This document shows positions 1,163 to 37,663 of a stretch of 37,703 nt of DNA, piece after piece (positions within the stretch are counted from its first letter, which is position 1; the number at the start of each line of letters is the position of its first letter). The stretch is taken from IMG/VR virus record IMGVR_UViG_2061766007_001450. One strand, 5' to 3'. The DNA comes from an uncultured virus (IMG/VR IMGVR_UViG_2061766007_001450). Taxonomy: Duplodnaviria; Heunggongvirae; Uroviricota; Caudoviricetes. A program made the translations under genes and the position numbers. The notes under the pieces were generated by a model. The model ran no database searches. It saw nothing but the letters and a program-made list of their open reading frames with translations, and was not told the DNA's origin.

Positions 1163-1194
1163 TTTGTTTTTCACGTGAAACATTATTATTTTTG
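1163..1194 (+). promoter_or_regulatory. Bacteroidota sigma-A promoter of the structural operon, with a parS-like site in the spacer
   Basis: TTTG 1163-1166, 20-nt spacer containing TTTTTCACGTGAAACA, TATTTTTG 1187-1194. Confidence 0.7.
1167..1182. promoter_or_regulatory. parS: parS-like palindrome
   Basis: TTTTTCACGTGAAACA, 15/16 to TGTTTCACGTGAAACA. Confidence 0.75.
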
Positions 1195-5151: not shown

Positions 5152-5167
5152 TGTTTCACGCGAAACA
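5152..5167. promoter_or_regulatory. parS: parS-like palindrome
   Basis: TGTTTCACGCGAAACA, 15/16, abutting the scaffold stop codon. Confidence 0.7.
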
Positions 5168-6389: not shown

Positions 6390-6404
6390 ATTTCACGTGA
6401 AACA
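6389..6404. promoter_or_regulatory. parS: parS-like palindrome
   Basis: TATTTCACGTGAAACA, between the terminator and the next ATG (6413). Confidence 0.75.
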
Positions 6405-7750: not shown

Positions 7751-7766
7751 AATTTCACGTGAAACA
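7751..7766. promoter_or_regulatory. parS: parS-like palindrome
   Basis: AATTTCACGTGAAACA fills the gap between stop 7747 and ATG 7767. Confidence 0.75.
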
Positions 7767-8147
7767 ATGGCGACTATCGACGGGCTTTTGAACGGTGCAA
7801 AAAAGTTTCTTGCAGACTTGGAGAGCGGGAGACATCCTCAAAGTGTTTTCCAACTTTTTGAAAAGGATATTGTGGCAATGAATACCGACGACCAACTTTT
7901 CAAAGAGGGCGAAAACGCGCTGGGTGTCACCATACGCTCCTATCAGCCATACTCCCCCGTTACCATCAGCATAAAACAGAAAAAAGGACAGCCGACCAAC
8001 CGTGTAACGCTAAGGGACACGCAAGCCTTCCACAATTCCTTTTTCATTTATGCAGATAATCGGGCGGCGTGGTTTAAAGCCACGGACAAGAAGTCGCAAA
8101 AGTTGTACGACCGTTATGGCGAGATTTTCGGCTTGACGGTCGCGAAC
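7767..8147 (+). CDS. Putative neck/tail completion protein (C-terminus in gap)
   Basis: PYSPVTISIKQKKGQPTNRVTLRDT motif typical of phage morphogenesis proteins; synteny. Confidence 0.55.
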
Positions 8148-8771: not shown

Positions 8772-9037
8772 ATGCTTGTTTATTTGTTTGTAACAGCCGC
8801 CGTCGCGCTTGCGGCGGCGNNNNNNNNNNNNNNNNNNNNNNNNNNNNNNAGTGGGGCATAATTGAGTGGTTGCAGGTACACGGCAACGACTTAATAAGCA
8901 AAATGGCGAATTGTGATTTTTGCCTTTCGTGGTGGACGTGCCTTGTTGTCGCTACCGTGGCGGCAATCCTGGCACAAGACCCGCTTTGCATCTTGACGGC
9001 GGTAATGGCAACACCATTAACGCGCAAATTGCAATAA
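8772..9037 (+). CDS. Small membrane protein, DUF1360-like (spans gap)
   Basis: Hydrophobic start MLVYLFVTAAVALAAA; CDFCLSWW (CxxCxxxW) followed by TM segments. Confidence 0.55.
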
Positions 9038-9051
9038 TTTCACGTGAAACA
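9036..9051. promoter_or_regulatory. parS: parS-like palindrome
   Basis: AATTTCACGTGAAACA overlapping the stop at 9037. Confidence 0.75.
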
Positions 9052-9067
9052 ATCATAAGGACGGAAG

Positions 9068-9401
9068 ATGGAAACAATAAAAATTGGTGCGCACGTTGTG
9101 AAGATATACAACAGCATCGAAGATTTGCCGATAATGCGCTATCATAAGTTTACAAAATGCCTATTGGTGGACGCGGGCATCGGCGCGGATATTGCGGCGG
9201 TGGATCGGCACTTGTACAAGGCGAGGGCATACGTGACGGCGCAAAAAACGGAGCTTGCACGGGCAGAACTGGACAACTTGCGGCAATGTATTATGTTGGT
9301 TGCAAACAATGTCACACCGAGGCTTACAGCGTTTGCGGCATTGGTGGCCGAGATAGACGGCGAGCAACAGACAGACCTCTCCGACGACGGGCTGCGGCGG
9401 G
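9068..9401 (+). CDS. Putative tail assembly chaperone, N-terminal part
   Basis: METIKIGAHVVKIYNSIEDLP...; upstream of the tape measure; truncated by gap; the ORF-track fusion to TMP sequence is a gap artefact. Confidence 0.55.
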
Positions 9402-9411
9402 NNNNNNNNNN

Positions 9412-10362
9412 ACAGCATCAACTCAACGTCGGAAACTATAAGAGCGCATTGGACGGCTTAGGAAAAGCGATGCAAGGATTGATGGGTAACGCGGGACAGT
9501 TGGCAAGTGGTTTGGGTGTCGGCGGTCTTGGTGGCTCGTTTTCGTCTTTGGCGGCGGGCGCGGGTCCCGTTGGTTTGGCGGTTGCCGCCGTGGGTGGATT
9601 TACCGCTGCAATGGTTAGCGGTGTAGATACGGCGCGAGAATATCAAAAAGCCGTGTCGGTGTTGCAATCTATCACCGGCAGCACGAAAGAAGGACTTAAA
9701 GAACTGACAGAGCAAGCGCGGCAACTTGGCGCGACTACTACATACACCGCCACCGAGGTAATCCAATTGCAGACGGAATTGGCAAAACTCGGTTATTCGC
9801 AGAGCGACATCTTGAATATGACCGATAGCGTTTTGTATTTCGCACAAGCAACCGGAGCGAGCCTTGCCGACGCATCAAGTATGACCGGCGCGGCATTGCG
9901 TATGTTCCAAAAGGACACCACCGACACGCAGGAGTTTGTGGATAAATTGGCGGCATCAACTACGAAATCGGCATTGTCGTTTTCGTACCTTGATACGGCA
10001 CTCTCTATCGTATCCCCCGTTGCAAATGCCTTTGGTTTTCAGATTGAGGACGTTTTGGCATTGTTGGGGCAACTTGCAAACGCAGGCTTTGACGCCTCAT
10101 CAGCAGCAACGGCAACGCGAAACATTCTTTTAAATTTGGCAGACGCTAACGGCGATTTGGCAAAGTCAATCGGACACCCCGTCAAGAATTTGGACGAGTT
10201 GGTTGCAGGTCTGCAACAACTTGATGCAGAGGGCATAGACCTTGCACAATCGTTGGAATTATCCGACAAACGCTCCGTTGCGGCGTTCAATACATTTTTG
10301 AAAGGTGCGGGTGACGTTTTGGAACTAAGGGACGCTTTGAACGATACCAACGGCACGGCACA
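9412..10362 (+). CDS. Tape measure protein fragment (second-strain allele, misplaced contig)
   Basis: Near-identical protein to about 11560-12506 with many synonymous changes; bounded by 10-N gaps. Confidence 0.8.
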
Positions 10363-10372
10363 NNNNNNNNNN

Positions 10373-10725
10373 AGGAGTTAAGGGTGTATTTTGCTGATTT
10401 GTTCGACGATGAGGCGGACAAAGAGTTTTATGACATATTGAAGTCCCGGACGTTGGAAGTATTGCGCGGAATTGCAGAGGGAAACCCCGACGAGGATAAA
10501 ATTGACCGGCTAACACGGGAATTAATGCAGCATATAAAGCCAAAAGTATTTCACGGCAAGGATAACGCCGAGGTGAGATATGACAAGAATTTCGAGAAGG
10601 TTTGCATCACCTTATCGGAGTACACAAACGCGAATGTAAAGTCGTTGACGGTCTCGGAGTTTTTCTCTCTCTATGAGTACGCAAAAGATGTTGCGAAACA
10701 ACAAAATAAATTGAAAAAACGTTGA
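10373..10725 (+). CDS. Putative tail assembly chaperone, C-terminal part or second chaperone
   Basis: ELRVYFADLFDD...KSLTVSEFFSLYEYAK; helical; upstream of TMP. Confidence 0.5.
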
Positions 10726-11044: not shown

Positions 11045-14000
11045 ATGGAAAGTCCCAACCCTATTAAATATAGCGATTTAATCAAACCCGACAACAGCAT
11101 CTCCGATTTAATTAAGCAATTGGAGACGCTGCAACAAGTGTATGCAGACACCGCAAAAAAATTGAGGGAAGAGGCGTTGCAGGTTTCGGCAAGCATCAAG
11201 AACGTGTCGGGCGCGACCGAGGACGGGCGCAAGGCTATAAACGACGCGGCGGCGGCAACTGAAAGACTGACAGCAGAGGAGAAAAAAGTGACGGCAGCCG
11301 AGGAGAAAAACGCAAAGGAGCTTGCACGGCTGAAACTTGCACAACAAGAGCAAAACAAAATCGAAAAGTTATCCGCAAAATTAGCCAATTCGACTGCGGG
11401 AAGCTATAACGCGCTCTCCGCTCAATATGCGTTAAACAAAATCCGTATTAACGCAATGAGCCAAGCCGAGAGAGATGCAGCCGAGAAATCCGAGCAGCTT
11501 ATCAGCAAGACAAACGCACTTTACGAGGCTATGAAAAAGATGCAAGCCGAAACGGGTATGCACCAACTAAACGTCGGCAACTACAAAAGCGCGTTGGACG
11601 GTCTCGGAAAGGTTATGCAGGGCGTATCGGGCAGCGCGTCACAATTGGCGGGCAGCCTTGGCGTCGGCGGTTTGGGCGGTTCTTTGTCTGGACTGGCGGC
11701 GGGCGCGGGACCAATGGGGCTTGCCGTTGCAGCCGTCGCAGGTTTCACCACCGCAATGGTGAGCGGCATAGACACGGCGCGAGAATACAACAAGGCGGTG
11801 TCTGTATTGCAGTCAATCACGGGCAGCACCGCAGACGGCTTAAAGGAGCTTACAGAGCAAGCGAGGAGTTTGGGCGCAACTACCACCTACACCGCCACCG
11901 AGGTAATACAATTGCAGACAGAGCTGGCAAAACTCGGTTACACACAAGGCGACATTAAGAACATGACCGACAGCGTGCTTTATTTTGCGCAAGCCACGGG
12001 CGCAAGTTTGGCGGAGGCGTCGTCAATGACGGGCGCGGCGTTGCGTATGTTCCAGAGAGACACGACCGATACACAAGAATTTGTTGACAAGTTGGCAGCA
12101 TCCACGACGAAGTCCGCCTTGTCGTTTTCGTACCTTGACACGGCGTTAAGCATCGTCTCCCCCGTTGCAAATGCCTTTGGTTTCCAGATAGAAGATGTTT
12201 TGGCACTTTTGGGACAATTAGCCAATGCAGGTTTTGACGCATCGTCGGCGGCGACGGCAACAAGAAACATTCTTTTAAATTTGGCAGATGCCAACGGCGA
12301 CCTTGCAAAGAGCATAGGACACCCCGTCAAGAATTTGGACGAGCTGGTCGCAGGGTTGCAACAACTTGATGCCGAGGGAATAGACCTTGCAAAATCTTTG
12401 GAATTATCTGACAAACGCTCCGTTGCAGCGTTCAATACATTTTTGAAAGGTGCGGGCGACGTTTTGGAACTAAGGGACGCTTTGAACGATACCAACGGCA
12501 CGGCACAAGAAATGTCCCAAATTATGGGGGACAATCTCGAAGGCGACATCAAGAGCCTTGGCAGTGCCTGGGACGACTTTATGTTGGAAATTAACGACGG
12601 GCAAGGCATATTGCGAGGTATCGTTCAATGGCTCACGATGGTTATCCGCGAAATCGCATCGACGTACAAAGAACTGAAAGCATACTTTACAGACCTTTGG
12701 AACACATCAGAGGACTTCCGCACTACGATGGCGGCATTGTGGGTAGTGCTTTACAAAGGTGCGAATGACTTTTGGGATATTCTCAAAATGCTCACAAAGA
12801 CGGCGTGGGGATTGGGCGAAATTCTTTACGGCGCGTTTACGCTTGATTGGGGCAAAATCAAAGACGGTTGGAACACTGTCATTGATGGCATTGCAGATGG
12901 TTTTGCAAGTATGCAGGAAACGGCAAAAAAAGCCGCCAAAGATGCAGGCGAAATGATTGAGAATGTACACCCGACAATCACGGCGGATGTAAAAGTCGAG
13001 GGCGTAACAGACAAACAGACAGAAACGACCGGCACGGGACAAGGCGAGGGCAGCGGCAAACAGAAAAACATCGTCAAACTTAACGGCAAGGAGTACGACC
13101 TTGAAATCGAAGAAGAAAAAGAAGATTATGAAAAAGCCCTCAAAAAATATCAAGAGGCGCAAAAGAAACTTGCCGACGAGCGAGAAAAAGCGCAGCGGAA
13201 AGCCGAGCAAGACGCAGAAAAGGCGTATCGTGCCGAACTGTCAGCAAGGCGCAGCGCGGAAGATGCTCAACTTGCCTTGATTGAGGATAGTTGGCAGCAA
13301 AAGACAATCAAAACCAATTTACAATACAGCCGTCAAATTGAGGATTTAAAGCACACGTTGGAAACTCAAAAGGATTTGACGGAAGATGCGCGTGAAAGTA
13401 TCAACGCCACCATTGCGGCATTGGAGCAGCAGCAGACCCGCGAATTAATCAAGATAGAGGAGGAGAGGTATGCAAAGGAGTTGGAGATGCAGAAGGCGGC
13501 AATAGAAATGAAGTTAAAAACGGTTGCAGCAGGCAGCGAGGAAGAAAAACAATTATTGATGCAGCAATTGGATGTTTCACGTGAAATCGCACTTTTGAAA
13601 GCCAAAACAGACGAGGAGCGAGCCGATATAAACAAGTCGTTTGATGTCCAAAAGGGCGGCATCGCGGATAAGTATTTGCAGCAGCAATTGGCGATTTTCG
13701 ACCAACAGCAAGATTTGACGCAATCGGAATTTGATTTATTGCGCAATTCCGAGCAGAAAAAAACATTATTCAAGTTGCAAGCCGAAAAAGCAAGATGGGA
13801 AAAAGTGTTGGCATTAAACGAGCAAGCCAACACAAAAATGTCGGATGCGGAAGTNNNNNNNNNNCTCGGTGAAATTCTCTACGGTGCTTTTACGCTTGAT
13901 TGGGGCAAAATCAAGGACGGTTGGAACACCGTCATTGATGGCATTGCAGACGGTTTCGCAAGTATGCAAGAAACGGCAGAAAAGGCCGCCAAAGATGCAG

Positions 14001-15410
14001 GCGAAATGATTGAGAATGTACACCCGACAATCACGGCGACCGTTGATGTAGAGGGCGCACCGTCGCCGTCGCCTAAGCCAGGGCAAGGTGAGGGCAGCGG
14101 CAAGCAAAAAAACATCGTCAGACTTAACGGCAAGGAGTATGACCTTGAAATCGAAGAAGAAAAAGAAGATTACGAAAAAGCCCTCAAAAAATATCAAGAG
14201 GCACAAAAGAAACTTGCCGACGAGCGCGAAAAGGCACAGCGAAAAGCCGAGCAAGATGCAGAAAAGGCGTACCGTGCCGAACTGTCAGCAAGGCGCAGCG
14301 CGGAAGATGCGCAACTTGCATTGATTGAGGATAGTTGGCAGCAAAAGACAATCAAAACCAATTTACAATATAGCCGTCAAATTGAGGATTTAAAGCATAC
14401 ATTGGAAACTCAAAAGGATTTGACGGAAGATGCACGTGAAAGCATCAACGCCACCATTGCGGCATTGGAGCAGCAGCAAACAAACGCTTTGATCAAGATT
14501 GAGGAAGAGCGTTATGCAAAAGAGTTGGAACTGCAAAAGGCTGCAATCGAAATGAAGTTAAAAACAGTTGCGGCGGGCAGCGAGGAAGAAAAACAATTGT
14601 TGATGCAGCAATTGGATGTTTCACGTGAAATTGCATTGCTTAAAGCCAAGACAGACGAGGAAAAAGCCGACATTAACAAGGCTTTTGACATTCAAAAGGG
14701 CGGCATTGCGGACAAGTATTTGCAGCAGCAATTAGCGATTTTCGACGAGCAACAAAGTTTGGCGCAATCGGAATTTGATTTATTGCGCAGTTCCGAGCAG
14801 CGCAAAACATTATTCAAGTTGCAAGCCGAAAAAGCAAGGTGGGAAAAGGTGTTGGCATTAAACGAGCAAGCCAACACAAAAATGTCGGATGCGGAAGTNN
14901 NNNNNNNNTTGATTTGTTGAGAAATTCCGAGCAGAAAAAAACATTATTCAAATTACAAGCCGAAAAAGCAAGATGGCAAAAAGTGTTGGAACTTAACGAG
15001 CAAGCCAACACCAAAATGTCAGATGCGGAAGTGCAGACAATCAAAAACACCATTGCGAAGATTGAGCAGGAGATGGACGCAGCCGGACGTAGTGGCGATA
15101 TTTACGATTTGGTTGGCTTAAATCTTGACAGCGACCAAAAGGGCGCAATACAATCATCAATGGACTTTGCAACGGAGCAACTTAACGCCTATATGGAAAG
15201 TTATGTGGCAGCGGCAGACGCGAAAGTAAATGCAGCCGCAAAAGAAGTTGACAGCGCACAAAAGGCACTTGACAAAGAAATCGAATTGCGCGACAAAGGC
15301 TATGCGAATGACGTTGCAACGGCGCAAAAGGAACTCGATATGGCGAAAGCCAATCAGGAGAAAGCGCAGCGCGAGCAAGAAAAAGCGCAGAAACGGCAAG
15401 CCGCCATTCA
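11045..15410 (+). CDS. Tape measure protein (TP901-type core), N-terminal and middle parts, with a duplicated allele segment at 13865-14898
   Basis: LTEQARSLGATTTYTATEV..., MGDNLEGDIKSLGSAWDDF motifs and long Ala/Glu/Lys coiled coils; 13865-14898 repeats about 12812-13854. Confidence 0.9.
13573..13588. promoter_or_regulatory. parS: parS-like palindrome inside TMP (DVSREI)
   Basis: TGTTTCACGTGAAATC. Confidence 0.7.
14617..14632. promoter_or_regulatory. parS: parS-like palindrome inside the TMP second allele
   Basis: TGTTTCACGTGAAATT; allele of the site at 13573. Confidence 0.7.
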
Positions 15411-15420
15411 NNNNNNNNNN

Positions 15421-16613
15421 ACCCTATTTATCCGGACGATATATCCCTTGTGTCCGAGAAAGAGAGCGGGCAGGTGTTTTTTCGGGAGAAATTGAGCACG
15501 CAATTGACGTTTGTTGGCGTGGATTATTCATGGATTATGTCTCAATCATTTGATGATGTTGTTTTGATGATATTATTTATAAAAGAAAATGGTGTATTGA
15601 AAAAAAGTTGGTATGGAAAGTTTACGCGGACAGATTGCACCATCAACGAAATAGACACAATCATCAAGGTAACGCCCGAGCCGAAGGACGATTTTAATGA
15701 CATTTTATCCATTATGGATAGGGAAGTCAATATCAAGGAATTGCCTATTGCGAGCAAAAAAATATTGATGCCCGTTTTTGATGTAGTGCAACTTTATCGC
15801 GCGGGCGCGTCATCAATCACCAATTATGTTGGCGGTGAGATGTGGAATGTTGATGTTTCACGTGAAATTTCAAATTATAGCGAATTAATGGATTTGAAAT
15901 TTTACAATACTTTCGGTATTATCACACCAAGACTTTTTGGTGGCATCACGGCGGATTTCGACACGCAAAGTTATTTGAGGACGTACCAATCATCGGTTAC
16001 GCTGTCAATGACCGACATCACGTCAACATACACCCTTGATATTTCGATTTCGGAAGGTGGAGCATACGACGTGGTGCTATCTTACGGCGGTGTTATGTTG
16101 GGACGCTACAGCGGCAGGGACGAAACGGGGTGGATTAAAGACAGCAACGACAATATAAAATGCCAAATCATAATGCAGCACTCGCCTATATTTTCACGCT
16201 ATTTATCAGTATCGGGCGGGTCTGCAATTTTGGACGAGTTCGGACAAATTGGAAAAAATTTCAAATATGCTTCACCATTGACTTCCGCGAACAATCACGG
16301 ATTTAAAATATCGGTATCAACTTCATTTTCGAGTTCTGAAACCAGGTGGGGCGCGGTCTATGATGGCAACACACCGACGGGACAATATTACACATCACAG
16401 TATTGGGGCGGCTACGATTCGCTGCCAATTTTGCAAAATTATTGGTCTGTCAGAGGCTCTGTGTGGTTTTTAATTCATTTGACAGAAAGCACGGATGTTC
16501 CGTATGGAATGGCATTTGTCCCAGATTGTTACGAAGTTGGCGATTTAATAAATGCCATTTGCGCAAAACAAAATGTCAGCATTTCGCTTCCTAAGAATAC
16601 CAGCGGCTCGGAG
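15421..16613 (+). CDS. Tail tip protein fragment (diverged allele of 17572-19663)
   Basis: PIYPDDIS.VSEKESGQVFFREKLSTQLTFVG shared with the 17572 ORF; bounded by 10-N gaps. Confidence 0.75.
15854..15869. promoter_or_regulatory. parS: parS-like palindrome inside tail gene allele (DVSREI)
   Basis: TGTTTCACGTGAAATT. Confidence 0.7.
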
Positions 16614-16623
16614 NNNNNNNNNN

Positions 16624-17555
16624 TTATGCAAACGATGTTGCAACGGCGCAAAAGGAACTTGATATGGCGAAAGCCAATCAAGAAAAAGCGCAGCGCGAGC
16701 AAGAAAAGGCGCAGAAACGGCAAGCCGCCATTCAGACGTTACAACAGATGGGCGACTTGGTGACGGCATCGGCTAAGATTTGGGGACAACTTGGTTTTCC
16801 GTGGGCAATTCCCGCAATCGCTACAATGTGGGGAAGTTTCGCAGCGGCAAAAATCAAGGCAAAACAAGTCACCAAAACAGAAACATACGGCGAGGGTACG
16901 GTTGAAATGTTGCACGGTGGAAGTCATCAGAGCGGCAACGATATTGACCTTGGCACTAAGCCCGACGGCACGAAAAGACGCGCCGAGGGTGGCGAGTTCT
17001 TTGCCGTTATCAACAAGCAGCGCAGCCGCCAATATGGCAACATCATTCCGTCTTTGATTAACAGCATCAACCACGGCACACTTGANNNNNNNNNNTATCC
17101 CTGCAATCGCTACAATGTGGGGTAGTTTCGCAGCAGCAAAAATCAAGGCAAAACAAGTCACCAAAACAGAAACATACGGCGAGGGTACGGTTGAAATGTT
17201 GCACGGTGGAAGTCATCAGAGCGGCAACGATATTGACCTTGGCACTAAGCCCGACGGCACGAAAAGACGCGCCGAGGGCGGAGAGTTCTTTGCTGTTATC
17301 AATAAGCAAAACAGCCGCAAGTACGGCAACATCATTCCGTCTTTGATTAACAGCATCAACCACGGCACACTTGAAAATCAGTTGACCGCAGACGCGGCAA
17401 ATATTGGCGCAATCATCAACGAGGGTGCGGATATTTCAGACCTTGCCGCAGACGTTCACGCCATCAAGATGCAGGGCGAGAAAAAGACCTACACCGATAA
17501 CGGCGCGATTGTTGAGGTTTACAAGAATTGCACCCGAAGGATAACACGAAATTAA
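16624..17555 (+). CDS. Tape measure protein C-terminus (two overlapping allele fragments)
   Basis: Continues YANDVATAQKELDMAKANQEK; GGSHQSGNDIDLG..RAEGGEFFAVINK; 17096-17373 duplicates about 16808-17085. Confidence 0.8.
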
Positions 17556-17571
17556 TTTTTCACGTGAAACG
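17556..17571. promoter_or_regulatory. parS: parS-like palindrome
   Basis: TTTTTCACGTGAAACG exactly fills the 16-nt gap between the TMP stop (17555) and ATG 17572. Confidence 0.75.
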
Positions 17572-19663
17572 ATGAAACGAGAGTTGAAATTTACATTGCA
17601 GAATTTAACGACTTACGAAGTCTACAACGCCCGCCCTATTTATCCGGACGACATATCCATTGTGTCCGAAAAAGAGAGCGGGCAGGTGTTTTTCCGTGAA
17701 AAATTAAGCACGCAATTAACGTTTGTTGGCGCGGATTATTCGTGGATAATGGCGCAGGCTTTTGACGATGCTATTTTGTTGATACTCTCCATAAAAGAAA
17801 ACGGTGTTTTGGTAAAAACTTGGTACGGAAAGTTTATGCGCACCGATTGCTTAATCAACGAAATAGACACAATCATCAGGGTAACGCCCGAACCGAGGGA
17901 CTATTTCAATGACATTCTATCCATAATGGATAGGGAAATCAATATCAAAGATTTAGATATTGCCAACCGACAAATTTATATGCCGACTTTTGACGTGGTG
18001 CAACTTTACAAACCGAACTCGTCAAGCATCATAAACTATGTTAACGGCGAGATATGGAGCGTTGATGTTTCACGTGAAATTTCACGGCATAGCGATTTGA
18101 CAGACTTACAATTTTATAATACCTTTGGATGGTTACGCCCCCGACTTTACAGCGGCATAACGGCAACATTCGCAATGCAAAGTTATGTTCGCACCTATCA
18201 GTCGGCGGTGACGTTAACGATGACCGATACAACATCAACATACACCCTCAATGTATCTATTTCTGAAAGCAATAGTTGTAGTGTTACATTAAAGCAAGGT
18301 GGCACTGTTTTGGGAGATTATGACGGCATTAATGATAATGGTATAATCAAAGATGCAGATGATAATCCCATTTGCTATTTTTCATTGAGCCATACCCCTA
18401 TATATTCACGTTATTTGTCGGCAAGCAGCGGCAGCGCAGCAATCAACGATTTTGGCGCAATCGGTAAAAATTACAAACACGTCACGCCGTTAACGTCTTT
18501 AAATCGGCACGGCTTACAATTAGGCATTTCGACGGCATTTTCCAACAGCCCGACACAATGGGGCGCGGTTTACACAAATGGCACTCCGACCGGTCAATAT
18601 TACACGCCCCACGCTTGGTTTGGATATGATGCTTTGCCGTTTATGCAGAACTATTGGAGCGGCGATGGCTCAATTTGGTTTATGATATTAAGAGCCGAAA
18701 GCACGAATATTCCTTATTCGCAAATACCAATTGCAGACTGTTACGAAATTGGCGATTTGATAAACGCCATATTGAGCAGTCAGAATGTTGGTATCGTCTT
18801 GCCAAAAAACAGCGTCGGCTCGGAGTTCCTTTATTCGGGGACTTCCCCAATATCGGGGTGGCACAATGGTTATGAAATTTATTTCACAGCCAAAAGCAAT
18901 GTTGCAAACTTCAATGCAGACGAGCCAGCGGCGAGCGTTAAATGTACTTTGGGGACGGTCTTGAACTTCTTAAAAAATGCGCTTAATGTTCGATGGACGT
19001 TGGCAACCGGCAATTTAAAAATTGAGCATATTGCGTACTTTAAGAATGGCGGCAGTTATGGCAGCACTCCGGCAATTGGTTATGATTTAACAACGATGAT
19101 AAACCCCCGAAACAACAAGCCGTGGGCGTTTGGGCAAAATGATTATAGTTTCGAGAAAAACAAAATGCCCGAATTTGTCAAATGGGAATGGATGGACGAA
19201 ACGGATATATTTTTTGATGGCAGCGGTTTTAATTGCATATCAAAGTATGTACAGCAAGGCAACACCGAAAGCATCAACATTGCGAATGTTACTTCCAACG
19301 TTGGCTTTATCGCTACACGTCCCGACCAAATAACACTTGATGGATTGTGCGTATTTTTGACCGTCAACGATAGGATAAATGTTGGCACGTGCAGCCGTCC
19401 GACTTTGAGCGGAGTTTACAACGTTGCCAACCCCGAAATGGCGATGTGGAACTTGCAGCAAGGCGTATTGCTTTACGATGCGCCTTGTGATACGATAGCG
19501 GTATCAGATACGACCTATAACGCGGTTGATGCCGTATTGACGAAAACAAACGAGGTGACATTCCCCGCCTTGATTGTGGACGTTCTGAAATTGATAAAAA
19601 CAAACGTTGGCGGCGGTGTTATTGACAGCATCACCAACAACATCAATAATTACAATGTAAAAA
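17572..19663 (+). CDS. Large tail tip/baseplate protein (C-terminus in gap)
   Basis: About 697 aa, beta-rich, directly after TMP. Confidence 0.7.
18066..18081. promoter_or_regulatory. parS: parS-like palindrome inside tail gene (DVSREI)
   Basis: TGTTTCACGTGAAATT; allele of the site at 15854. Confidence 0.7.
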
Positions 19664-20400: not shown

Positions 20401-20830
20401 TGGCGCAGTATGTTACAAAACGCCGTTGTATCGCGTCAAACATTTTCTTTACCTTGCAACGGAACTTGGCAAGCCCGACTACACTTTTGAGGAGGAGGGC
20501 GAGCAAAGGGATGGCTACTTTTTCCCGACAAAACAATTATCGGAAAAGGTTTATCGCTTTACATTCGTTGCGCCCGAATACCTTTGCGACGTTATGCGCT
20601 TTATCCGCTTGTCCGACATCGTGAACGTGTACGACCCATACGGCAGGGTTTACAAGTGCGACACGTTCCTTCTCACCCCCAAATGGTTGACGCAAGGCGA
20701 TTTGGCGCAAGTTGATTGTGAATTTGAAACAAACACGGTTGCGAAGAAAGTCGGCGCAAGTGTTGATGCAGAGGATATTGGCGGAGATTTTAACAACGAC
20801 TACAACAACGACTACAACAACGAGCAATAA
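20401..20830 (+). CDS. Minor tail protein, C-terminal half, short allele (no LRR)
   Basis: ...LYRVKHFLYLATELGKPDYTFEEEGEQRDG...GGDFNNDYNNDYNNEQ*. Confidence 0.7.
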
Positions 20831-20833
20831 TGA

Positions 20834-20849
20834 TGTTTCACGTGAAAAT
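20834..20849. promoter_or_regulatory. parS: parS-like palindrome
   Basis: TGTTTCACGTGAAAAT just after the stop. Confidence 0.7.
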
Positions 20850-21116: not shown

Positions 21117-22356
21117 CGGCGCGGTGTGCTACAAAACGCCGTTGTATCGTGTAAAGCATTTTCTTTACCTTGCAACGGAACTTGGCAAGCCCGACTACAC
21201 TTTTGAGGAAGAGGGCGAGCAAAGAGATGGCTACTTTTTCCCGACGAAACAACTATCCGAAAAGGTGTACAGATTTACATTTGTTGCCCCCGAGTACGTT
21301 TGTGACGTTATGCGATTTATAAGGCTGTCCGACATCGTGAACGTTTACGACCCATACGGCAGGGTGTACAAGTGCGACACGTTCCTAATTACCCCAAAAT
21401 GGCTAACACAAGGCGATTTGGCGCAGGTGGATTGCGAATTTGAAACAAACACGCTTGCAAAGAAAGTCGGCGCGAGTGTCGATGCAGAGGATATTGGCGG
21501 CGACTTCAACAACGACTATAACAATGATTATACCAACGTGCAAGGACACGAGCCTGCATACATTCCATCAGTGGCGAGGGTGCGAGAATATGTCAAGGCA
21601 AATACAACATCGTGCATATTCGGTGTAAAGGGTCAGCATATTACAGAAGGTTATCATCATATCGGCTATCTTGACTATGAAAATAAAATAGAAATATGGC
21701 AGGATGGCACGAAGTTTATGTTTCTTTACGCAGGCAAGATGTACGCGCCTGACAGTTGTGATAATATGTTCCAAAACTGCGCCGCGCTCACTACACTTAA
21801 CCTCTCCAATTTTGACACCGCGAATGTTACATCAATGAACCGTATGTTCGCCACTTGCGCCGCACTCACGTTGCTTGACTTATCCAATTTCAAAACCGAT
21901 AATGTTACATCGATGTTGAATATGTTTAATGGCTGCACCGCGCTTACAACTCTCAACCTTTCCAATTTCAACACCGCGAATGTTACAACGATGTTTGGTA
22001 TGTTCTATCAAGACACCTCGCTACAAACGCTTGACCTCTCCAATTTCAACACCGCGAATGTTACAACGATGTTGGGTATGTTTAATGGCTGCACCGCGCT
22101 GCAAACGCTTGACCTTTCCAGCTTCAACACCGCGAATGTTACCGATATGTCATTTATGTTCCAGAGATGCACCGTACTAACGACTATATATGGCGGAGAT
22201 TGGGTCAAGATGCCGGGGTTAGTGCAAACTAATATGTTCCGTTATTGCACTTCCCTCGTCGGCGGCAACGGTACTACATACAGCAGTGCGCACGATAACG
22301 CCGAGTATGCGCGTATTGACCGACCCGGCACACCGGGCTACTTCACACAAAGATGA
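21117..22356 (+). CDS. Minor tail protein C-terminal half fused to a DUF285/BspA-like LRR domain
   Basis: Same protein as 20401-20830 up to NNDYNNDY, then 266 aa with five 26-aa LxxLDLSNFNTxNVTxMxxMFxxC repeats. Confidence 0.8.
21787..22176 (+). repeat. Five 78-bp coding repeats (DUF285/surface-protein 26-residue repeat)
   Basis: Recurring CTCTCCAATTTCAACACCGCGAATGTTACA at 78-nt period. Confidence 0.85.
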
Positions 22357-22394
22357 TGTTTCACGTGTAACAAAAAAATGTTTCACGTGAAAAA
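22357..22394. promoter_or_regulatory. parS: Tandem pair of parS-like palindromes
   Basis: TGTTTCACGTGTAACA (22357-22372) and TGTTTCACGTGAAAAA (22379-22394) right after the LRR gene stop. Confidence 0.75.
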
Positions 22395-22420: not shown

Positions 22421-23155
22421 ATGGCAAATTACAGCAACTTAATCAATAGCATAAAAGCCGTAATAAAGCAAAACGGCACAAATGACATCACCGGTCAGTT
22501 GATGCAAGATGTGTTGGTTGCGATGACAAACACAATCGGACGTTTCGCGGCGTTTGCCGGAACGGCTATGCCATCAACCAACCCCAACAACCCCGACCAA
22601 ACGGTGTATTACTTGACATCAATTCCCGGCACGTATGTTAATTTTGGCGGCATCGTCGTTCCGCCCGACCGCCTTGTCGCCTTGCACAACATCAGCGGCA
22701 GTTGGGAGATGGTTGTTGTCGTGACGTTTTCGGACGGCGGCACAATCAGCATTGATCCAACCCTCGACCCAAACAGCGTGAACCCCGTAGAGAATAGGGC
22801 GTTGTATAACGTAATTGATGCACTTACAACGAGGGTCACGGCATTGGAGACGGCAACAACGGAGTTGCAAATAACGTCCAATTGGCTGTCCGCATCAGAG
22901 GTAAAGGCGATTACCAACACCACATACGCGGGGAAGAACATTATTGACTTTATGGCGGTGGCATCTGGCGTTAATGCGCATCACTATACAGCAGCGAAAC
23001 AGACGGGCAGCGGAATTTACTTGTATGGTGCTAAATTCCAAAACAACACAGTGGATTTTGAAGTGTTACACCCGAGCGGCGCAGACACCTTGCAAGACAC
23101 TTTGGGTGGTGGCGATGCATTCCTTAGTGGCTTTATTTCATATTGCGACAGATGA
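22421..23155 (+). CDS. Putative tail fibre/baseplate protein
   Basis: Conserved N-terminus, LDPNSVNPVENRA motif, short coiled coil, variable C-terminal domain. Confidence 0.6.
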   Translation: MANYSNLINSIKAVIKQNGTNDITGQLMQDVLVAMTNTIGRFAAFAGTAMPSTNPNNPDQTVYYLTSIPGTYVNFGGIVVPPDRLVALHNISGSWEMVVVVTFSDGGTISIDPTLDPNSVNPVENRALYNVIDALTTRVTALETATTELQITSNWLSASEVKAITNTTYAGKNIIDFMAVASGVNAHHYTAAKQTGSGIYLYGAKFQNNTVDFEVLHPSGADTLQDTLGGGDAFLSGFISYCDR

Positions 23156-23948
23156 TTGCGGAATGTTTGTTAATCAGAGACGAGAACCGCTATTTGTTGG
23201 AGCATTTGGCGTACAATGCAGCGGCGGGCATCGACCATTTTTTCATCTATGATAATATGAGTCGCGTCCCCGTTGCCGACTTTTTGCGCGAAAATGCCCG
23301 TGATTTTCTGAATATTTGCACCGTTGCAAGGTATCAAGGGCGCGGAAACTTGCAAATTGATTGCTATGCAGATTATTTGCAAGAACACCGCCACGTCGAT
23401 TGGACTTTGTTTTGCGACACGGACGAAATATTAATGGGCAACATTCGCGACGCGGTGGCGGAGTTTGGCAGCGTTTACAATTGTCTGTCATTTGCGCCAA
23501 TTTTGCACGGCTGCAATGGCAAAATTTATGACGATGGCGGCGGAATGTTTGAACGTTTCGACAGCGACATCATCGACCCCGCGCACCATTGGTACAAGTT
23601 TGTGGCGAGGACGGCGGACATCGCATCAATATCGAATGTGCATTATTGCAAAATGCCGAACAAAAAATTGATTTATTTGAGGGCTAAGAATTATCCTCAA
23701 TGCGTATTGCATCATTTTCGTTTCCGTTCATTCGAGGAATGGCTGCGGAAAATCATCAGAGGCAGGGNNNNNNNNNNNNNNNNNNNNNNNNNNNNNNNNN
23801 NNNNNNNNNNNNNNNNNNNNNNNNNNCGACAGTATCACCGACAGACCCCGAAGTCGTGAAAATAATGCAGAAAAATGGCGTGAATTTGGAAACCGTACAA
23901 AAATATTTTGATGTTTCACGTGAAAATATTTTGCAGTTTGAAAAATAA
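23152..23948 (+). CDS. GT-A fold glycosyltransferase (GT92/GT2-like), allele A (spans gap)
   Basis: RDENRYLLEHL..GIDHFFIYDNMS, DxD-like DTDE, LHHF.FRSFEE; ATGA coupling to the upstream gene. Confidence 0.75.
23912..23927. promoter_or_regulatory. parS: parS-like palindrome in the 3' end of the glycosyltransferase gene (DVSREN)
   Basis: TGTTTCACGTGAAAAT. Confidence 0.7.
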
Positions 23949-25379: not shown

Positions 25380-25785
25380 CCCAGCCCTCGACCCCGACAG
25401 CGTGAACCCCGTGGAAAATCGCGCAGTATATGCCGAATGTCAGACAATACGCGCTTTGATTGATGATATTCCGACAGCGCAACCTATCACGAGTACGTAT
25501 CTAAGCACGGCGCAGGCAAACGCCATAACGGGCGAAACCTACGTTGGCAAAACCATTCTCAATTTTTCTGCAACGATAAGTGGTGTTGATGCTATTATAG
25601 TGACAGGCGCAAAACAAGTCGGCACAGCAGGCAGTGGAAAACTTTACGTGTATGGTACTGGCTTAACTGGGCAACATACGGTTGAACGAATAGTGTACGA
25701 GGTGTCGGGCGGTAACACTTTGGGAGATGTTATCGGCGTAAATGTCGGCATTGACAACGGCGCATTAATAGTATATGCAGAATGA
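25380..25785 (+). CDS. Tail fibre/baseplate protein C-terminus (diverged allele of 22421-23155)
   Basis: LDPDSVNPVENRA motif and same ATGA coupling to the glycosyltransferase gene. Confidence 0.65.
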
Positions 25786-26561
25786 TAGCAGAAGTATTGC
25801 TTATCAAGGATGAGAACCGCTATTTGTTGGAGCATTTGGTGTGCAATGCAGCGGCGGGCATCGACCATTTTTTCATCTATGATAATATGAGTCGCGTCCC
25901 CGTTGCCGACTTTTTGCGCGAAAACGCCCGTGATTTTCTGAATATTTGCACCGTGCAAAGGTATCATTCCAACAATAATCTCCAACTTGATTGCTATGCA
26001 GATTATTTGAGGGAACACCGCCACGTCGATTGGACTGTGTTTTACGATACGGACGAGTGTTTCACGGGAAACATTCGTGATGCGGTGGCGGAGTTCGGTG
26101 GCAATTATAATTGTCTGTCATTCTCTCCGATATTGCACGGCTGCAACGGACATTTGCAGCGTCAGAGGGGCGGCACGATGCAAGAACTATATGGCGCCGA
26201 CATTCTAAGTCGTGCGCACCATTGGTATAAGGTATGCGCAAAGACGGCGGACATAACGTCCCAATACATCCACAATAACGCAATGGTTAATAAACGCTTG
26301 ATATATTTGACCGCAGACAAATATCCATCTTGCGTTTTGCATCATTACAGATTTCGGAGTTTTGAAGATTATTTATTGAAATTCCAACGAGGCAGGGCTA
26401 ACATAACTAAAAAAGGCTGTTGGGTTCCGCACATCAGCGATTTTTTTGCACTTCACAAAAACATAAGACCCGACGACCCCGAAGTCGTGGCATTAATGCA
26501 GAAATACGGCGTGAATTTGGGGACGGCGCAAAAACATTTTGATGTATATCCCTCGAACTAA
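25782..26561 (+). CDS. GT-A fold glycosyltransferase (GT92/GT2-like), allele B
   Basis: Complete 259-aa ORF; KDENRYLLEHL, GIDHFFIYDNMS, DTDE, LHHYRFRSFED. Confidence 0.8.
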   Translation: MIAEVLLIKDENRYLLEHLVCNAAAGIDHFFIYDNMSRVPVADFLRENARDFLNICTVQRYHSNNNLQLDCYADYLREHRHVDWTVFYDTDECFTGNIRDAVAEFGGNYNCLSFSPILHGCNGHLQRQRGGTMQELYGADILSRAHHWYKVCAKTADITSQYIHNNAMVNKRLIYLTADKYPSCVLHHYRFRSFEDYLLKFQRGRANITKKGCWVPHISDFFALHKNIRPDDPEVVALMQKYGVNLGTAQKHFDVYPSN

Positions 26562-26613: not shown

Positions 26614-26629
26614 TGTTGCACGTGAAACA
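26614..26629. promoter_or_regulatory. parS: parS-like palindrome
   Basis: TGTTGCACGTGAAACA matches TGTTNCACGTGAAACA exactly; abuts the stop of the minus-strand LRR gene. Confidence 0.8.
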
Positions 26630-28081
26630 TTACGCTTGTGTGAAATAACCAGGCGTTCCGGCGCGGTCAATTCGTGCGTAGGTTGCATCAGTGTGGTTGG
26701 AATTATAATGCGTGCCGTTGCCGCCGACAAGAGAGGTGCAGCCGGCGAACATATTTCCGTCATCTTCTGTCAATGACAAATCCCAATCTCCGCCGTAGAT
26801 GGTAGTTAGTTGTGTGCAGCCAGCGAACATTTGCGCTATCGCTGTAACATTTGCGGTGTTGAAGTTGGAGAGGTCAAGCGTTATAAGCGCCTTGCATCCG
26901 CCGAACATTGCATACATTGTCGTAACATTTGCGGTGTTGAAGTTGGAGAGGTCAAGTGTTGTAAGCGCATTGCATCCGCCGAACATACTCTCCATTGATG
27001 TAACATTCGCTGTGTTGAAGTTGGAAAGGTTAATTGTTGTAAGCGCCTTGCATCCGCCGAACATTGCATACATTGTCGTAACATTTGCGGTGTTGAAGTT
27101 GGAGAGGTCAATCGTTTGCAACGCAGCGCAGCCGTTAAACATCGCGACCATTGATGTTACATTAGAAGTGTTGAAGTTGGAGAGGTCAAGCGTTGTAAGC
27201 GCATTGCATCCGACGAACATTGCTTGACAGACATCAGGCGCGTACATATCCGCGTCTGATAAAAATAAAATTTTTGTGCCATCTCGCCATATTTCAATCA
27301 AATTATCGTCATCAAGATAACCTACCATATTGTAGCCTGATGTAGAATGTTGCGACTTGTAGCCAAACACGCACGATGTCGTAGTGGTTAGAACGTAATT
27401 GCGAATGACGGAAACACTTGGGATATAAGCCCTTTGCGTAATGCAAAGGTCTGAAAGTACATTGAACGTATCAATGGTAAATATTTTTATGTAGTCGCTA
27501 TAATTCGGCACAAATGACCATTGAATTACATTCGCGTCCGGTGCATCAATGCCGCCGTGTGTCTTGTCGCCGACAAAAAACGCCTTGATGTGTATCGGCA
27601 TTATCCATTCGTTGTTGTTTTCGTCAACAATGCCAAGTGCCTCTACGTTGCCGTTGCCATCTATCAGATAGACACCAACATTTTCGCACTGCAAAGATTT
27701 TAACACCTTTGCGATTGATTGTGGCACATTGCGCAATGATGCGGAGAATGTGGACGACTCACGCCCTATAATTTCCTCAACGCCGTTTAAACTGTCATTG
27801 CCGCCACCAAAAGTACGCGCCGCTCCGCTCTCCTGCGTGGGGCTGTAAATATAAGGCGATAAAACAATTTTTGTGCTGTCGGCGGCTGTCATTTTAGCCT
27901 GCCAATTTGCCAGACTGTTTATTTCAGAAAATCCCGACGTGGCGGAAAATTTATTTTTCGTGCCGTCATCGTTCATAATTCGCTGAAACGCCACCTTTTG
28001 TATTTGCCCGAAACGTTCAGAGCATCTGACACATTCCAAGTCGGGCAGCGATGCAGGTGGGGGACAATTACAAGTTATCAT
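26630..28081 (-). CDS. Tail-tube-like paralog fused to a DUF285/BspA-like LRR domain
   Basis: Starts MITCNCPPPASLPDLECVRC; first ~215 aa colinear with 1258-1912; last 266 aa homologous to the LRR module at 21556-22356. Confidence 0.8.
   Translation of the reverse strand: MITCNCPPPASLPDLECVRCSERFGQIQKVAFQRIMNDDGTKNKFSATSGFSEINSLANWQAKMTAADSTKIVLSPYIYSPTQESGAARTFGGGNDSLNGVEEIIGRESSTFSASLRNVPQSIAKVLKSLQCENVGVYLIDGNGNVEALGIVDENNNEWIMPIHIKAFFVGDKTHGGIDAPDANVIQWSFVPNYSDYIKIFTIDTFNVLSDLCITQRAYIPSVSVIRNYVLTTTTSCVFGYKSQHSTSGYNMVGYLDDDNLIEIWRDGTKILFLSDADMYAPDVCQAMFVGCNALTTLDLSNFNTSNVTSMVAMFNGCAALQTIDLSNFNTANVTTMYAMFGGCKALTTINLSNFNTANVTSMESMFGGCNALTTLDLSNFNTANVTTMYAMFGGCKALITLDLSNFNTANVTAIAQMFAGCTQLTTIYGGDWDLSLTEDDGNMFAGCTSLVGGNGTHYNSNHTDATYARIDRAGTPGYFTQA
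26810..27199 (-). repeat. Five 78-bp coding LRR repeats
   Basis: GTAACATTTGCGGTGTTGAAGTTGGAGAGGTCAA recurring at 78-nt period. Confidence 0.85.
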
Positions 28082-28137: not shown

Positions 28138-28169
28138 CAAATGTAACAAAAATTTTCACGTGAAACAAA
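28138..28169 (-). promoter_or_regulatory. Bacteroidota sigma-A promoter with a parS-like site across the spacer
   Basis: Minus strand reads TTTG-TTTCACGTGAAAATTTTTGT(20 nt)-TACATTTG. Confidence 0.7.
28152..28167. promoter_or_regulatory. parS: parS-like palindrome
   Basis: ATTTTCACGTGAAACA. Confidence 0.75.
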
Positions 28170-28336
28170 TGTTTTGCAGTGTTTTTTGTTGTTTTTCAGA
28201 CATTTTGCACCCTACAATCACCCTACAATCGCCCTTTGTAGGATGTTTTTATTTTGCTGATTTTCAGATGTTTAAATTGTCCAATCCTACACGTCCAAAA
28301 AATATTAAATATTTTAACAACTATTAACATAAATAA

Positions 28337-30600: not shown

Positions 30601-30616
30601 TGTTTCACGTAAAACT
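30601..30616. promoter_or_regulatory. parS: parS-like palindrome (degenerate)
   Basis: TGTTTCACGTAAAACT directly after the stop. Confidence 0.6.
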
Positions 30617-33790: not shown

Positions 33791-33806
33791 TGTTTCACGT
33801 GAAAAA
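33791..33806. promoter_or_regulatory. parS: parS-like palindrome
   Basis: TGTTTCACGTGAAAAA between a hairpin and ATG 33816. Confidence 0.75.
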
Positions 33807-36039: not shown

Positions 36040-36055
36040 TGTTTCACGTAAAACA
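36040..36055. promoter_or_regulatory. parS: parS-like palindrome
   Basis: TGTTTCACGTAAAACA, 15/16, 10 nt before ATG 36066. Confidence 0.7.
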
Positions 36056-36065
36056 TCAATCGAAA

Positions 36066-36946
36066 ATGGAAACGGCATTTGCAAATATAAACATCAAGGC
36101 ACTTACAACGGTGCAGCCCGAGCAACCGCCCCGACAGTCGGCGGTGACAATCGCGCTGCAAAAGTTGGCGGACACCAACACCGCGCCGTTGAGCAATGTT
36201 GATGCCTTGATACTGACGGCTGCAAAAAATGCAACCATCGGAGAGATGCAGCCAACGGAAATCGCCGCATCCGTTAATCAATGTTTCCGATTTATAAGCA
36301 TTGATGTTGGGTACAAGCGANNNNNNNNNNGGTGCGCTTGGCGGACGTTCTTAAACGTCACTTTTACGACCTTACTATTGAGGACGTGAAAACAGCATTT
36401 GAATTACTGACAGTTGGCGACCTCGACAATTATTTGCCGACAAACAGCAGCGGAGAGCCTGACCGCAGTCACTATCAAAATCTCAATGCCGAGTATCTTT
36501 GCAAAGTGTTGAGGGCGTACAAAAAAAGGCGCGATGTTGCATATACCAACATCAAGGCAGCGCAGCCGAAACCGCAAAAGGCATTACCGCCGCAACCGAC
36601 CAAAACACCCGCAGAAAAAACGCGGGAATGTTACGACACTTACAAGGCAACAGGCAAACTTGTTTTTGTCATTCCGCCCGACGATGTAACGATTGCCAAC
36701 TTTTTGACAGAAAAAGGATTGATGGCGGCGGTAGTCGTAACAGATGCAGATAAAGAAAAAGCATTTGGAATTTATAAGGCGGAAAATGAACTCGGATTGC
36801 ATAACGACTATGCCGCCCGTTGGATTATCAGAGCGGGCAAAGATGCGCGAGAAATTCAACCAAAGGCGTATAAGTTAGCGTTAAATCGTTGCATCAAGGC
36901 GGCGTTTGACGGATTTGTTTCACGTGAAAAAACGAAAAATCAATGA
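36066..36946 (+). CDS. Hypothetical replication-region protein (spans gap 36321-36330; start duplicated at 35726-35772)
   Basis: METAFANINIKALTTV... continuing as RLADVLKRHFYDLTIEDVKTAFEL. Confidence 0.6.
36916..36931. promoter_or_regulatory. parS: parS-like palindrome in gene 3' end (FVSREK)
   Basis: TGTTTCACGTGAAAAA. Confidence 0.7.
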
Positions 36947-37647
36947 TACCGAAAACACTTCATTATATGTGGTTTGGCGGCAAACAAATGCCGTCAATAT
37001 GCAAAGAATGTATTGAAAGTTGGCACAAAGTATTGTCGGCTGATTGGTTATTCCAATTTTGGAATGAAGATAATTACGACATCGAAACAAAAAACAACTT
37101 TGTTTTGCAGGCGTATAGCAGCGGAAATTACGCTTTTGTTTCAGATTACGCACGTTGGGACATTTTGCACCGTCAAGGCGGTGTGTATGTAGATACCGAT
37201 GTTTTTATGTTAAAAGACATCACGCCACTTTTGCAGCATAAGGCGTTTGGAGGCCGCAACGGTCTCGGGCTATTCGCGTCGGGATTGATTTTAGGTGCAG
37301 AGCCTAATTTGCCGATATTCGCAGAAATGAAAGCGGAATACAATAAGCGTAATTTTCTGACGAAAGACGGCAAGCCAACATACGTCACAAACATAATGGT
37401 CGAAAATGAATTGTTGACGCGCCACAACTTGAAGCCCGATTTGGAGATTGCGCAAACCGTTGCAGACATCACAATCTACCCGACCGATTATTTTTGCCCA
37501 TTCTCTCCGGCAGATGGTACGCTGAAAACAACGGCAAACACATACGCGATACATCAGTTCACGGGTACGTGGATACCCGAGGGGCGCAAGGCGGCACAAG
37601 CGAAAGCCAATCCGAAATTGGCGGAGCATTACAAAAGAGTCAAATAA
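36943..37647 (+). CDS. GT32 / OCH1-like DXD glycosyltransferase
   Basis: MIPKTLHYMWFGG, WNEDN, YAFVSDYAR..IL...GGVYVDTDV, YFCP, TYAIHQFTGTW signature motifs. Confidence 0.9.
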   Translation: MIPKTLHYMWFGGKQMPSICKECIESWHKVLSADWLFQFWNEDNYDIETKNNFVLQAYSSGNYAFVSDYARWDILHRQGGVYVDTDVFMLKDITPLLQHKAFGGRNGLGLFASGLILGAEPNLPIFAEMKAEYNKRNFLTKDGKPTYVTNIMVENELLTRHNLKPDLEIAQTVADITIYPTDYFCPFSPADGTLKTTANTYAIHQFTGTWIPEGRKAAQAKANPKLAEHYKRVK

Positions 37648-37663
37648 TGTTTCACGTAAAACT
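37648..37663. promoter_or_regulatory. parS: parS-like palindrome (degenerate)
   Basis: TGTTTCACGTAAAACT between stop 37647 and next ATG 37671. Confidence 0.6.

Follow-up and report, generated by a model that had tools for sequence, protein, structure and literature searches.

We have analyzed the 37,703-nt scaffold IMGVR_UViG_2061766007_001450, from an uncultured virus of the Caudoviricetes (hereafter the window; 37.7 kb, including 25 N-gaps with 2,619 N), which carries many sites resembling parS, the sequence bound by the bacterial ParB protein. Matches to GTTTCACGTGAAAC with no more than two mismatches number 22 in the window, against 0.30 expected (100 shuffles, maximum 2), and every one of the 22 has exactly one mismatch. 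The phage belongs to a clade whose members have 20–28 sites per genome, roughly one per 1.6–2.2 kb, and selection almost certainly acts on the DNA letters of these sites.

Canonical parS is a 16-bp palindrome, TGTTTCACGTGAAACA (PMC10197239), and the consensus of the phage sites is identical to it. Relatives of the window were gathered from viral, metagenome and genome collections, and 16 clade records were surveyed for sites with two or fewer mismatches (numbering is that of the 16-mer). This gave 162 sites, 149 of them one mismatch away from the 14-bp core, 13 two mismatches away, and none perfect. The single changes seen are G2T, G2A, C6T, A7G, T5G and T5A, with A7C once, and in eight site clusters the change differs from genome to genome. 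T5C is found in none of the 149 one-mismatch sites and is included in five of 12 two-mismatch states (P=0.0035). Under a flat-plateau model with ∼55 independent states, a number that is approximate in that site clustering over-merged some AT-rich loci, the lack of perfect sites has a P of 0.02–0.09, and the lack of both perfect and T5C sites a P of 0.018 to 9e-5; both T5C tests were devised after inspection of the host data.

Those host data come from the order holding genome G008, in which 61 genomes gave 80 parS matches (0–5 per genome), with a match in 46 of the 61. By hand count, the 75 matches listed comprise 25 perfect sites, 27 with T5C, and 23 others, the last being close to the 27 obtained with a reversed control pattern. 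The chromosomal sites adjoin what we take to be a gidA-like gene in five loci inspected, and in three of these loci the final codons of a gene beside it contain one of the sites. The 149 phage sites that are one mismatch off the core match the palindrome of this chromosomal type, but they are dispersed rather than few and origin-clustered, and no cognate parA-parB pair was found on the same replicon. Binding scores published for Burkholderia ParB are 55 for the wild-type site, 9 for random sequence, and 43 for T5C on both arms, which is described there as the sole inner change that canonical ParB tolerates on both arms; binding is lost (scores 10–11) when G2T, G2A, T5A, T5G, C6T or A7G is present on both arms, and T5A on a single arm scores 43 yet gave no incompatibility in vivo (PMC5450999). 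By this pattern, a typical phage site has one intact arm and one damaged arm.

In two protein trees, a branch with support of 99/100 and 100/99 separates the site-bearing phages from the rest, and scans of five cultured relatives, a complete uncultured outgroup and a further 45 capsid loci found no site. Two complete relatives, which are circles with a 141-nt terminal overlap, contain 28 one-mismatch sites spaced on average 1.6 kb apart and 21 spaced 2.2 kb apart; 9 and 6 of these respectively are in coding sequence, although coding DNA makes up 88% of these genomes. It had been proposed that sites recur every few kb even within long genes. The whole set is indeed regularly spaced (coefficient of variation 0.50 and 0.61; P=0.0004 and 0.027 under a null that draws gene ends and coding positions at random), but the contribution of coding sites to filling the gaps is weak, in that with the real intergenic sites held fixed they improve evenness with P=0.028 and, in G006, 0.24, and some of them have been lost.

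Codon conservation of intragenic sites

The original prediction described six intragenic sites read in one frame as GTT TCA CGT GAA, and all six are present, encoding DVSREI four times, DVSREN and FVSREK; the 14-mers begin one base later than it placed them, at 13574, 14618, 15855, 18067, 23913 and 36917. The six copies count as four loci, because the duplicated tape-measure protein (TMP) and tail-tip genes are two strains scaffolded together. The TMP gene (11045..14920, + strand; PHROG and Pfam matches) consists of two strain pieces across an N-gap, with the site at 13574..13587 (DVSREI) in copy A and the same locus at 14618..14631 in the co-scaffolded copy B. The tail-tip gene (17572..19663, + strand), named by its position and matching PHROG 19383, a family of unknown function, has its site at 18067..18080 in copy B, the same locus as 15855..15868 (DVSREI) in copy A. 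The codons flanking the paired sites differ as noted before (ATC GCA CTT vs ATT GCA TTG); the supposed alleles are strain variants scaffolded across N-gaps. The window stretch is contained in 20 public runs from 13 studies, mostly of bovine gut according to the run records, with only small shares of it present in RNA runs, and we compared contigs from five of the 20 with the window. In run X1, contigs at depth 11.8 and ∼30 span alternative gene copies and a single contig covers 15421-16613 and continues directly into 18847; contigs of all four runs connect 9401 to 10373. The seven other clade records aligned at the TMP site yielded a single copy apiece.

Two of the arguments first offered for selection carry little weight. 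The shared reading frame says little because one of the three frames, in which the 16-mer translates as CFT*N, contains a TGA stop, leaving VSRET and FHVK open, and relatives also use FHVK and LHVK, in their scaffold and tail-chaperone genes. Nor is retention of the site in both copies telling, since four unchanged codons would be expected by chance with a probability of ∼0.40 for TMP and ∼0.11 for the tail tip. In the third allele pair, of the glycosyltransferase genes starting at 23143 and 25782, the two copies have different sites: that at 23913 is only in the first copy, and the second copy alone has one at 26059..26072, overlooked previously, which is read in the third frame as CFTGN, its mismatch removing the TGA.

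The comparison of homologs that had been suggested as a check does support selection on the DNA motif. Nine of the 16 displayed coding loci have at least two homologs keeping the peptide and were used; the other seven were excluded as having a single carrier, a two-mismatch site or no alignment. In peptide-keeping homologs the core codons are unchanged in 38 of 38 cases, where the same genes and sequences predict 17.6 (log10 P −14.8) and the 30 codons on either side predict 19.2 (log10 P −12.6), these P values being optimistic because codons were taken as independent and grouped by degeneracy. A codon-specific background for the distant pair G005 and G006 gives ∼0.02 per shared locus. At the TMP locus all four core codons are fixed in eight sequences, which is to say in 8/8 homologs keeping VSRE (P=0.003 gene-wide, 0.022 locally), and at the tip site the codons are fixed in four sequences (P=0.02). 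Among four other runs, compared as contigs and hence with rare variants dropped, there are 40 listed differences at 34 positions within 13516-13648 and none within 13571-13587; by hand count 23 of 41 flanking third positions vary versus none of the four in the core.

A second suggested check, for enrichment of VSRE in the proteome, was also borne out: three clade proteomes have 5, 4 and 5 VSRE, 14 in all, against ∼0.1 expected in each, and one outgroup has none. Thirteen have the codons that make a site, the exception being one VSRE in G006 encoded with non-motif codons. HVK and FHV use other codons where a site is lacking, and outgroups and some clade members have different residues at the site positions.

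The sites turn over between lineages. The TMP site is gone in G006, the tip site is missing from the G005, G006 and L179 homologs, and the scaffold and chaperone sites are lost in the window. The TMP gene of G006 contains, 63 codons upstream, a site with two mismatches, and G005, G001 and L179 have two-mismatch sites further along the tip gene, in which the codon position of the site varies by lineage; these weaker in-gene sites may possibly be compensation for the losses. Sites would enter genes where intergenic room is wanting, by mutation of tolerant positions to VSRE, FHVK or near variants. We note that tail-tip alleles are mosaic across the tail regions of L179, L181, L185, G005, G006 and G001: L181 and L185 are 92–95% like the window in the tip gene and only ∼75–83% in a head-region gene, and L179, at 99% in the head, falls to 45% in the tip. 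Relatives of the tail-tip protein were sought in viral contigs and none were found.

Promoters and the remaining sites

Bacteroidota promoters have the consensus TTTG-N19-21-TAnnTTTG, and the promoters of the window match this type; all promoters described here are called by consensus. That of the structural operon (1163..1194, + strand; TTTG-N20-TAnnTTTG) holds a site at 1168-1181 in its spacer. The four genomes scanned, namely the window, G005, G006 and G001, all have this −33/−7 spacer occupied by a site, and the three other than the window carry a further site 31 bp upstream. The promoter spacer of the second tail-tube gene is similarly filled in the window (28138..28169, − strand; site 28153-28166) and in G005. 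Spacers of the repeated early promoters contain no site in the genomes scanned. Five cultured outgroups have a −7 box at the structural promoter, with the full consensus unmatched there. A −7 box lies within 8 nt of 10 of 91 sites, compared to ∼1 expected, and these ten represent four orthologous loci. The claim that the sites fit genome coating better than an operator role holds in part: the majority of the sites lie at a distance from promoters, but all four genomes scanned have one in the structural-promoter spacer. Chromosomal ParB is reported to repress parS-adjacent promoters in P. aeruginosa (PMC7022226).

We note several features of these promoters and their genes. The second tail-tube gene (26630-28081, − strand), whose own promoter is the site-occluded one, is fused to a DUF285 leucine-rich repeat domain and is present in G005 and not in G006. 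A tail gene at 21124-22356 is also fused to a DUF285 repeat domain, and its other strain copy (20426-20830) is without the fusion. The early promoters lie in four copies of an 89-nt repeat, at 28300, 29837, 30791 and 32335, each with a consensus Bacteroidota promoter. A gene of Parabacteroides phage PDS1 annotated as an RNA polymerase sigma factor (L001:22604-23287) lies 5′ of the large terminase gene and is likely the small terminase; it has no Pfam sigma match, and we dropped the idea that the clade exchanged a late sigma factor for ParB control.

Sites also occur at gene ends. Those at 23913..23926 (DVSREN; copy A of a GT2 glycosyltransferase, with a −7 box 7 nt away on the minus strand) and 36917..36930 (FVSREK; a replication-region gene, 12 nt before the next ATG) fall within the final 10–12 codons of their genes. 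Intergenic sites lie 3′ of the scaffold stop codon (5153..5166), between the capsid gene and the next gene (6390..6403), adjoining the ATG at 7767 (7752..7765), at a stop codon (9037..9050), at 20835..20848, and as a tandem pair at 22358 and 22380 (22358..22393). The one at 17557..17570 makes up the entire 16-nt gap between the TMP stop and the tail-tip ATG. Another (26615..26628) is between convergent genes, 53 nt past the GT2 copy that has no C-terminal site. The early region has two (30602..30615 and 33792..33805), one (36041..36054) is closely 5′ of position 36066, where a replication-region gene likely starts, and one is past a glycosyltransferase stop (37649..37662).

Gene products named in the window by PHROG and Pfam scans are the portal, capsid, tape measure, exonuclease, Erf and glycosyltransferases. 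The glycosyltransferases are of two kinds (23143-23948, 25782-26561 and 36943-37647), relatives add a UDP-sugar dehydrogenase (L194:11444-12232), and none of these genes is present in the outgroups; the set possibly serves virion or DNA glycosylation.

Binding protein, host and function of the sites

The window phage is related to Bacteroides phage B40-8 and to PDS1, with capsids 54–65% identical, and 50 of 50 capsid relatives with a named bacterial host, among the matches listed, infect Bacteroidota. Of 45 and 46 genes in the two complete relatives, just 2 and 3, respectively, have a Shine-Dalgarno-like motif upstream, and these start contexts, together with the promoters, point to a Bacteroidota host. 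Bins of metagenome-assembled genomes (MAGs) indicate Bacillota, and the Bacteroidota-type phage contigs G004:C64, G005:C116, G006:C125 and G007 that sit in such MAGs are probably misbinned.

A search of the complete phages and three viral records for HTH_ParB gave no match with the cutoff relaxed to E=1, and neither ParA nor a tyrosine integrase or resolvase was detected. A gene with the ParB_N domain only is beside methylase genes in G005 and G006, and G002 has two copies; neither it nor a 205-aa helix-turn-helix (HTH) gene occurs in the syntenic, contiguous stretches of G001, a genome with 20 sites. We rejected the ParB_N protein as the binder, given its absence from G001 and its lack of an HTH_ParB match; phage-encoded ParB-like proteins that stand alone, with no DNA-binding domain, have been described (PMC13229309). 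The chromosomes of the likely host group have both the word (46 of 61 genomes) and a matching ParB, since TIGR00180 was found in five of five Bacteroidales genomes searched, with R173 and R204 kept in four of four sequences read and G201 in three of the four (numbering from PMC7383237). Host ParB is probably the protein that binds the sites.

Beyond the existence of the sites and the selection on them, the remainder is what we infer. On balance we favor a model, built on sequence comparison, in which the weakened sites load host ParB, which coats the genome and holds late genes off until replication dilutes it. The ParB clamp would load at many weakened sites and slide between them, so as to coat the whole 44-kb low-copy genome, and the coat would occlude the structural promoter and repress late genes. 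A single mismatch may be selected so that the strong sites of the chromosome win the competition for ParB. Phage replication would then multiply the sites beyond the ParB pool and release the late genes, and the same coat could couple the non-integrated genome to host ParA. More tentatively, as a joint proposition that we consider plausible and somewhat less than probable, host ParB would serve as a genome-wide, titratable chromatin and as a late-gene timer, with dozens of weakened sites and structural proteins rewritten to fit them; ParB would silence, and possibly segregate, the low-copy genome without harm to the chromosome, and replication would free late transcription.

Several observations weigh against this model. 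Only 2–3 of the 20–28 sites per genome adjoin a −7 box, and intragenic gap-filling is non-significant in G006, where gaps between one-mismatch sites reach 5.3 kb. The lack of perfect sites is marginal by itself and becomes stronger only with the post hoc use of T5C. The specificity data were obtained with ParB of Burkholderia, not of Bacteroidota, and of the single-arm variants present in the phages T5A alone is among the assays described there (PMC5450999). Small HTH proteins of the phages exist as alternative binders. Four of five genome-collection matches are binned in Bacillota MAGs (Acutalibacteraceae or Eubacteriales), and the literature describes PDS1, one of the cultured relatives, as lytic (PMC10773633). 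Finally, 13,954 bases of G005:C116, roughly a third of a single phage genome, were used to search for a host among 301 genomes of G008's family, 30 of which showed weak matches. A crude check for repeated 20-mers saw no array resembling clustered regularly interspaced short palindromic repeats at six of seven short-match loci, with L231 having three copies of one 20-mer. We also note another short palindrome, in a G005 gene (L196, minus strand, query 701-733), with 27–33 nt matches in ∼11 genomes of G008's family; it is not in the window.

The sites might instead serve inheritance, the ParB-coated, non-integrated genome riding the host ParA gradient in a plasmid-like carrier state, with promoter overlap being secondary. 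The complete circles without an integrase or their own ParA and ParB are consistent with this, as are the ∼90% of sites with no adjoining −7 box and the precedents of phi29 (PMC2731898) and SGI1 (PMC10954446), and weakened sites would spare the host chromosome. We nonetheless consider it unlikely as the main role: one or two strong sites would suffice for partition and host genomes carry 0–5, the carrier state is hypothetical, and the structural-promoter spacer site is kept in four of four genomes scanned.

A shade less likely is a set of operators for a dimeric repressor that the phage itself encodes, or a transcription-roadblock system, with only a resemblance to parS. Operators usually have imperfect symmetry, the sites do occur in promoter spacers and at gene ends, and avoidance of perfect parS would keep host ParB off. 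The clade also has candidate repressors in a Cro-like HTH protein and a 59-aa HTH_17 protein, whose gene follows the site-bearing genomes, with no outgroup match by tblastn. However, the consensus is exactly parS and T5C behaves as neutral, as it does with ParB; the HTH candidates diverge (∼51–60% identity) while the word stays fixed; the ParB_N-only and 205-aa HTH genes are missing from the site-bearing G001 stretches; and operators would be looked for at early or immunity promoters, where the early promoters have no site.

A decoy or shield, in which replicating phage DNA soaks up ParB and stalls segregation and division, or the coat hides DNA from nucleases, seems improbable to us. The 20–28 evenly spread sites per copy would be multiplied by replication, and surplus parS is reported to slow the growth of Burkholderia (PMC5450999), but a decoy should have perfect sites, of which there are none, and no report of ParB shielding was found in the literature searched.

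Very improbable is a spore-forming Bacillota host in which the sites serve phi29-type entrapment in the spore. The MAG bins in Acutalibacteraceae or Eubacteriales are what suggests it, but a site-free outgroup is in the same kind of bin, and the promoters, the rarity of Shine-Dalgarno-like motifs and the hosts of the capsid relatives point elsewhere. Small phages with a phi29-like gene set, moreover, have perfect sites instead: the viral contigs L083, L096 and L079 (12–16 kb), and also L092 and L100, have 3–6 perfect parS copies each, and the first three, which share matches to DNA polymerase phrog_1907 and terminase phrog_2150, appear phi29-like by our reading of their genes. That VSRE is retained for protein function, or that its invariance is chance, scarcely merits belief, as the codon test and the varying residues and HVK/FHV codons elsewhere contradict it, although the window-only allele pairs and the single non-motif VSRE of G006 are compatible with it.

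Comparison with known systems

In the literature searched, with most subscription papers outside its coverage, we found no account of host-type parS tiling the genome of a Bacteroidota phage. The presence of parS in coding sequence is not itself new, in that the inspected Bacteroidales chromosomes have such sites. If our favored model is right, host ParB is a regulator and carrier open to phages of non-sporulating gut bacteria, and there is a testable route to late-gene timing or persistence in integrase-free Bacteroidales phages. The one-mismatch rule predicts that repairing sites to perfect parS should harm the host or the phage, and that synonymous recoding should abolish ParB loading with the proteins unchanged.

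The Bacteroidales chromosomes share the same 16-bp word, and at the three loci with a last-codon site it is read as FHVK or FHVE (L206:3985-4422, L210:3918-4358 and L208:2860-3525). Their sites are clustered, 0–5 per genome, and mostly perfect or T5C, whereas the phage sites are never of these two forms. In N15, the centromere sites are dispersed and overlap genes or promoters. The IR1-4 sites of N15 resemble the present ones in being several and separate on a phage genome, but there are four, of another sequence, and they work with its own SopA and SopB (PMC7205306).

Phage phi29 is described as having five parS sites bound by host Spo0J/ParB, and like the phages here, which lack partition genes and an integrase of their own, it is a non-integrating phage with host-type parS that borrows a host DNA-binding protein (PMC2731898). 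It differs in having five sites rather than 20–28, which here are never perfect; in spore entrapment in a sporulating host, where the host here is likely a non-sporulating Bacteroidota; and in repression that is attributed in that account to Spo0A, not ParB. SGI1 is also an element without its own system that bears sites for the ParB of another replicon (IncC parABS), although it has two copies that mimic plasmid parS and cause incompatibility, not many weakened copies of a chromosomal type (PMC10954446).

The KorB-OB system of RK2 has dispersed sites for a ParB-family clamp, some promoter-proximal and some >1 kb away, acting in both partition and repression (PMC11790492). The phage sites are similarly both near to and distant from promoters. 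However, KorB and its operator are plasmid-encoded and unlike chromosomal parS, whereas the phages have the chromosomal word and no HTH-bearing ParB or ParA of their own, only the ParB_N-domain gene that is absent from G001; a lock like KorA was not identified in this phage. The set is neither of the self-encoded KorB/N15 type nor a true centromere; by analogy, the phage sites may work like the borrowed parS of phi29 while being arranged like the KorB operators of RK2.

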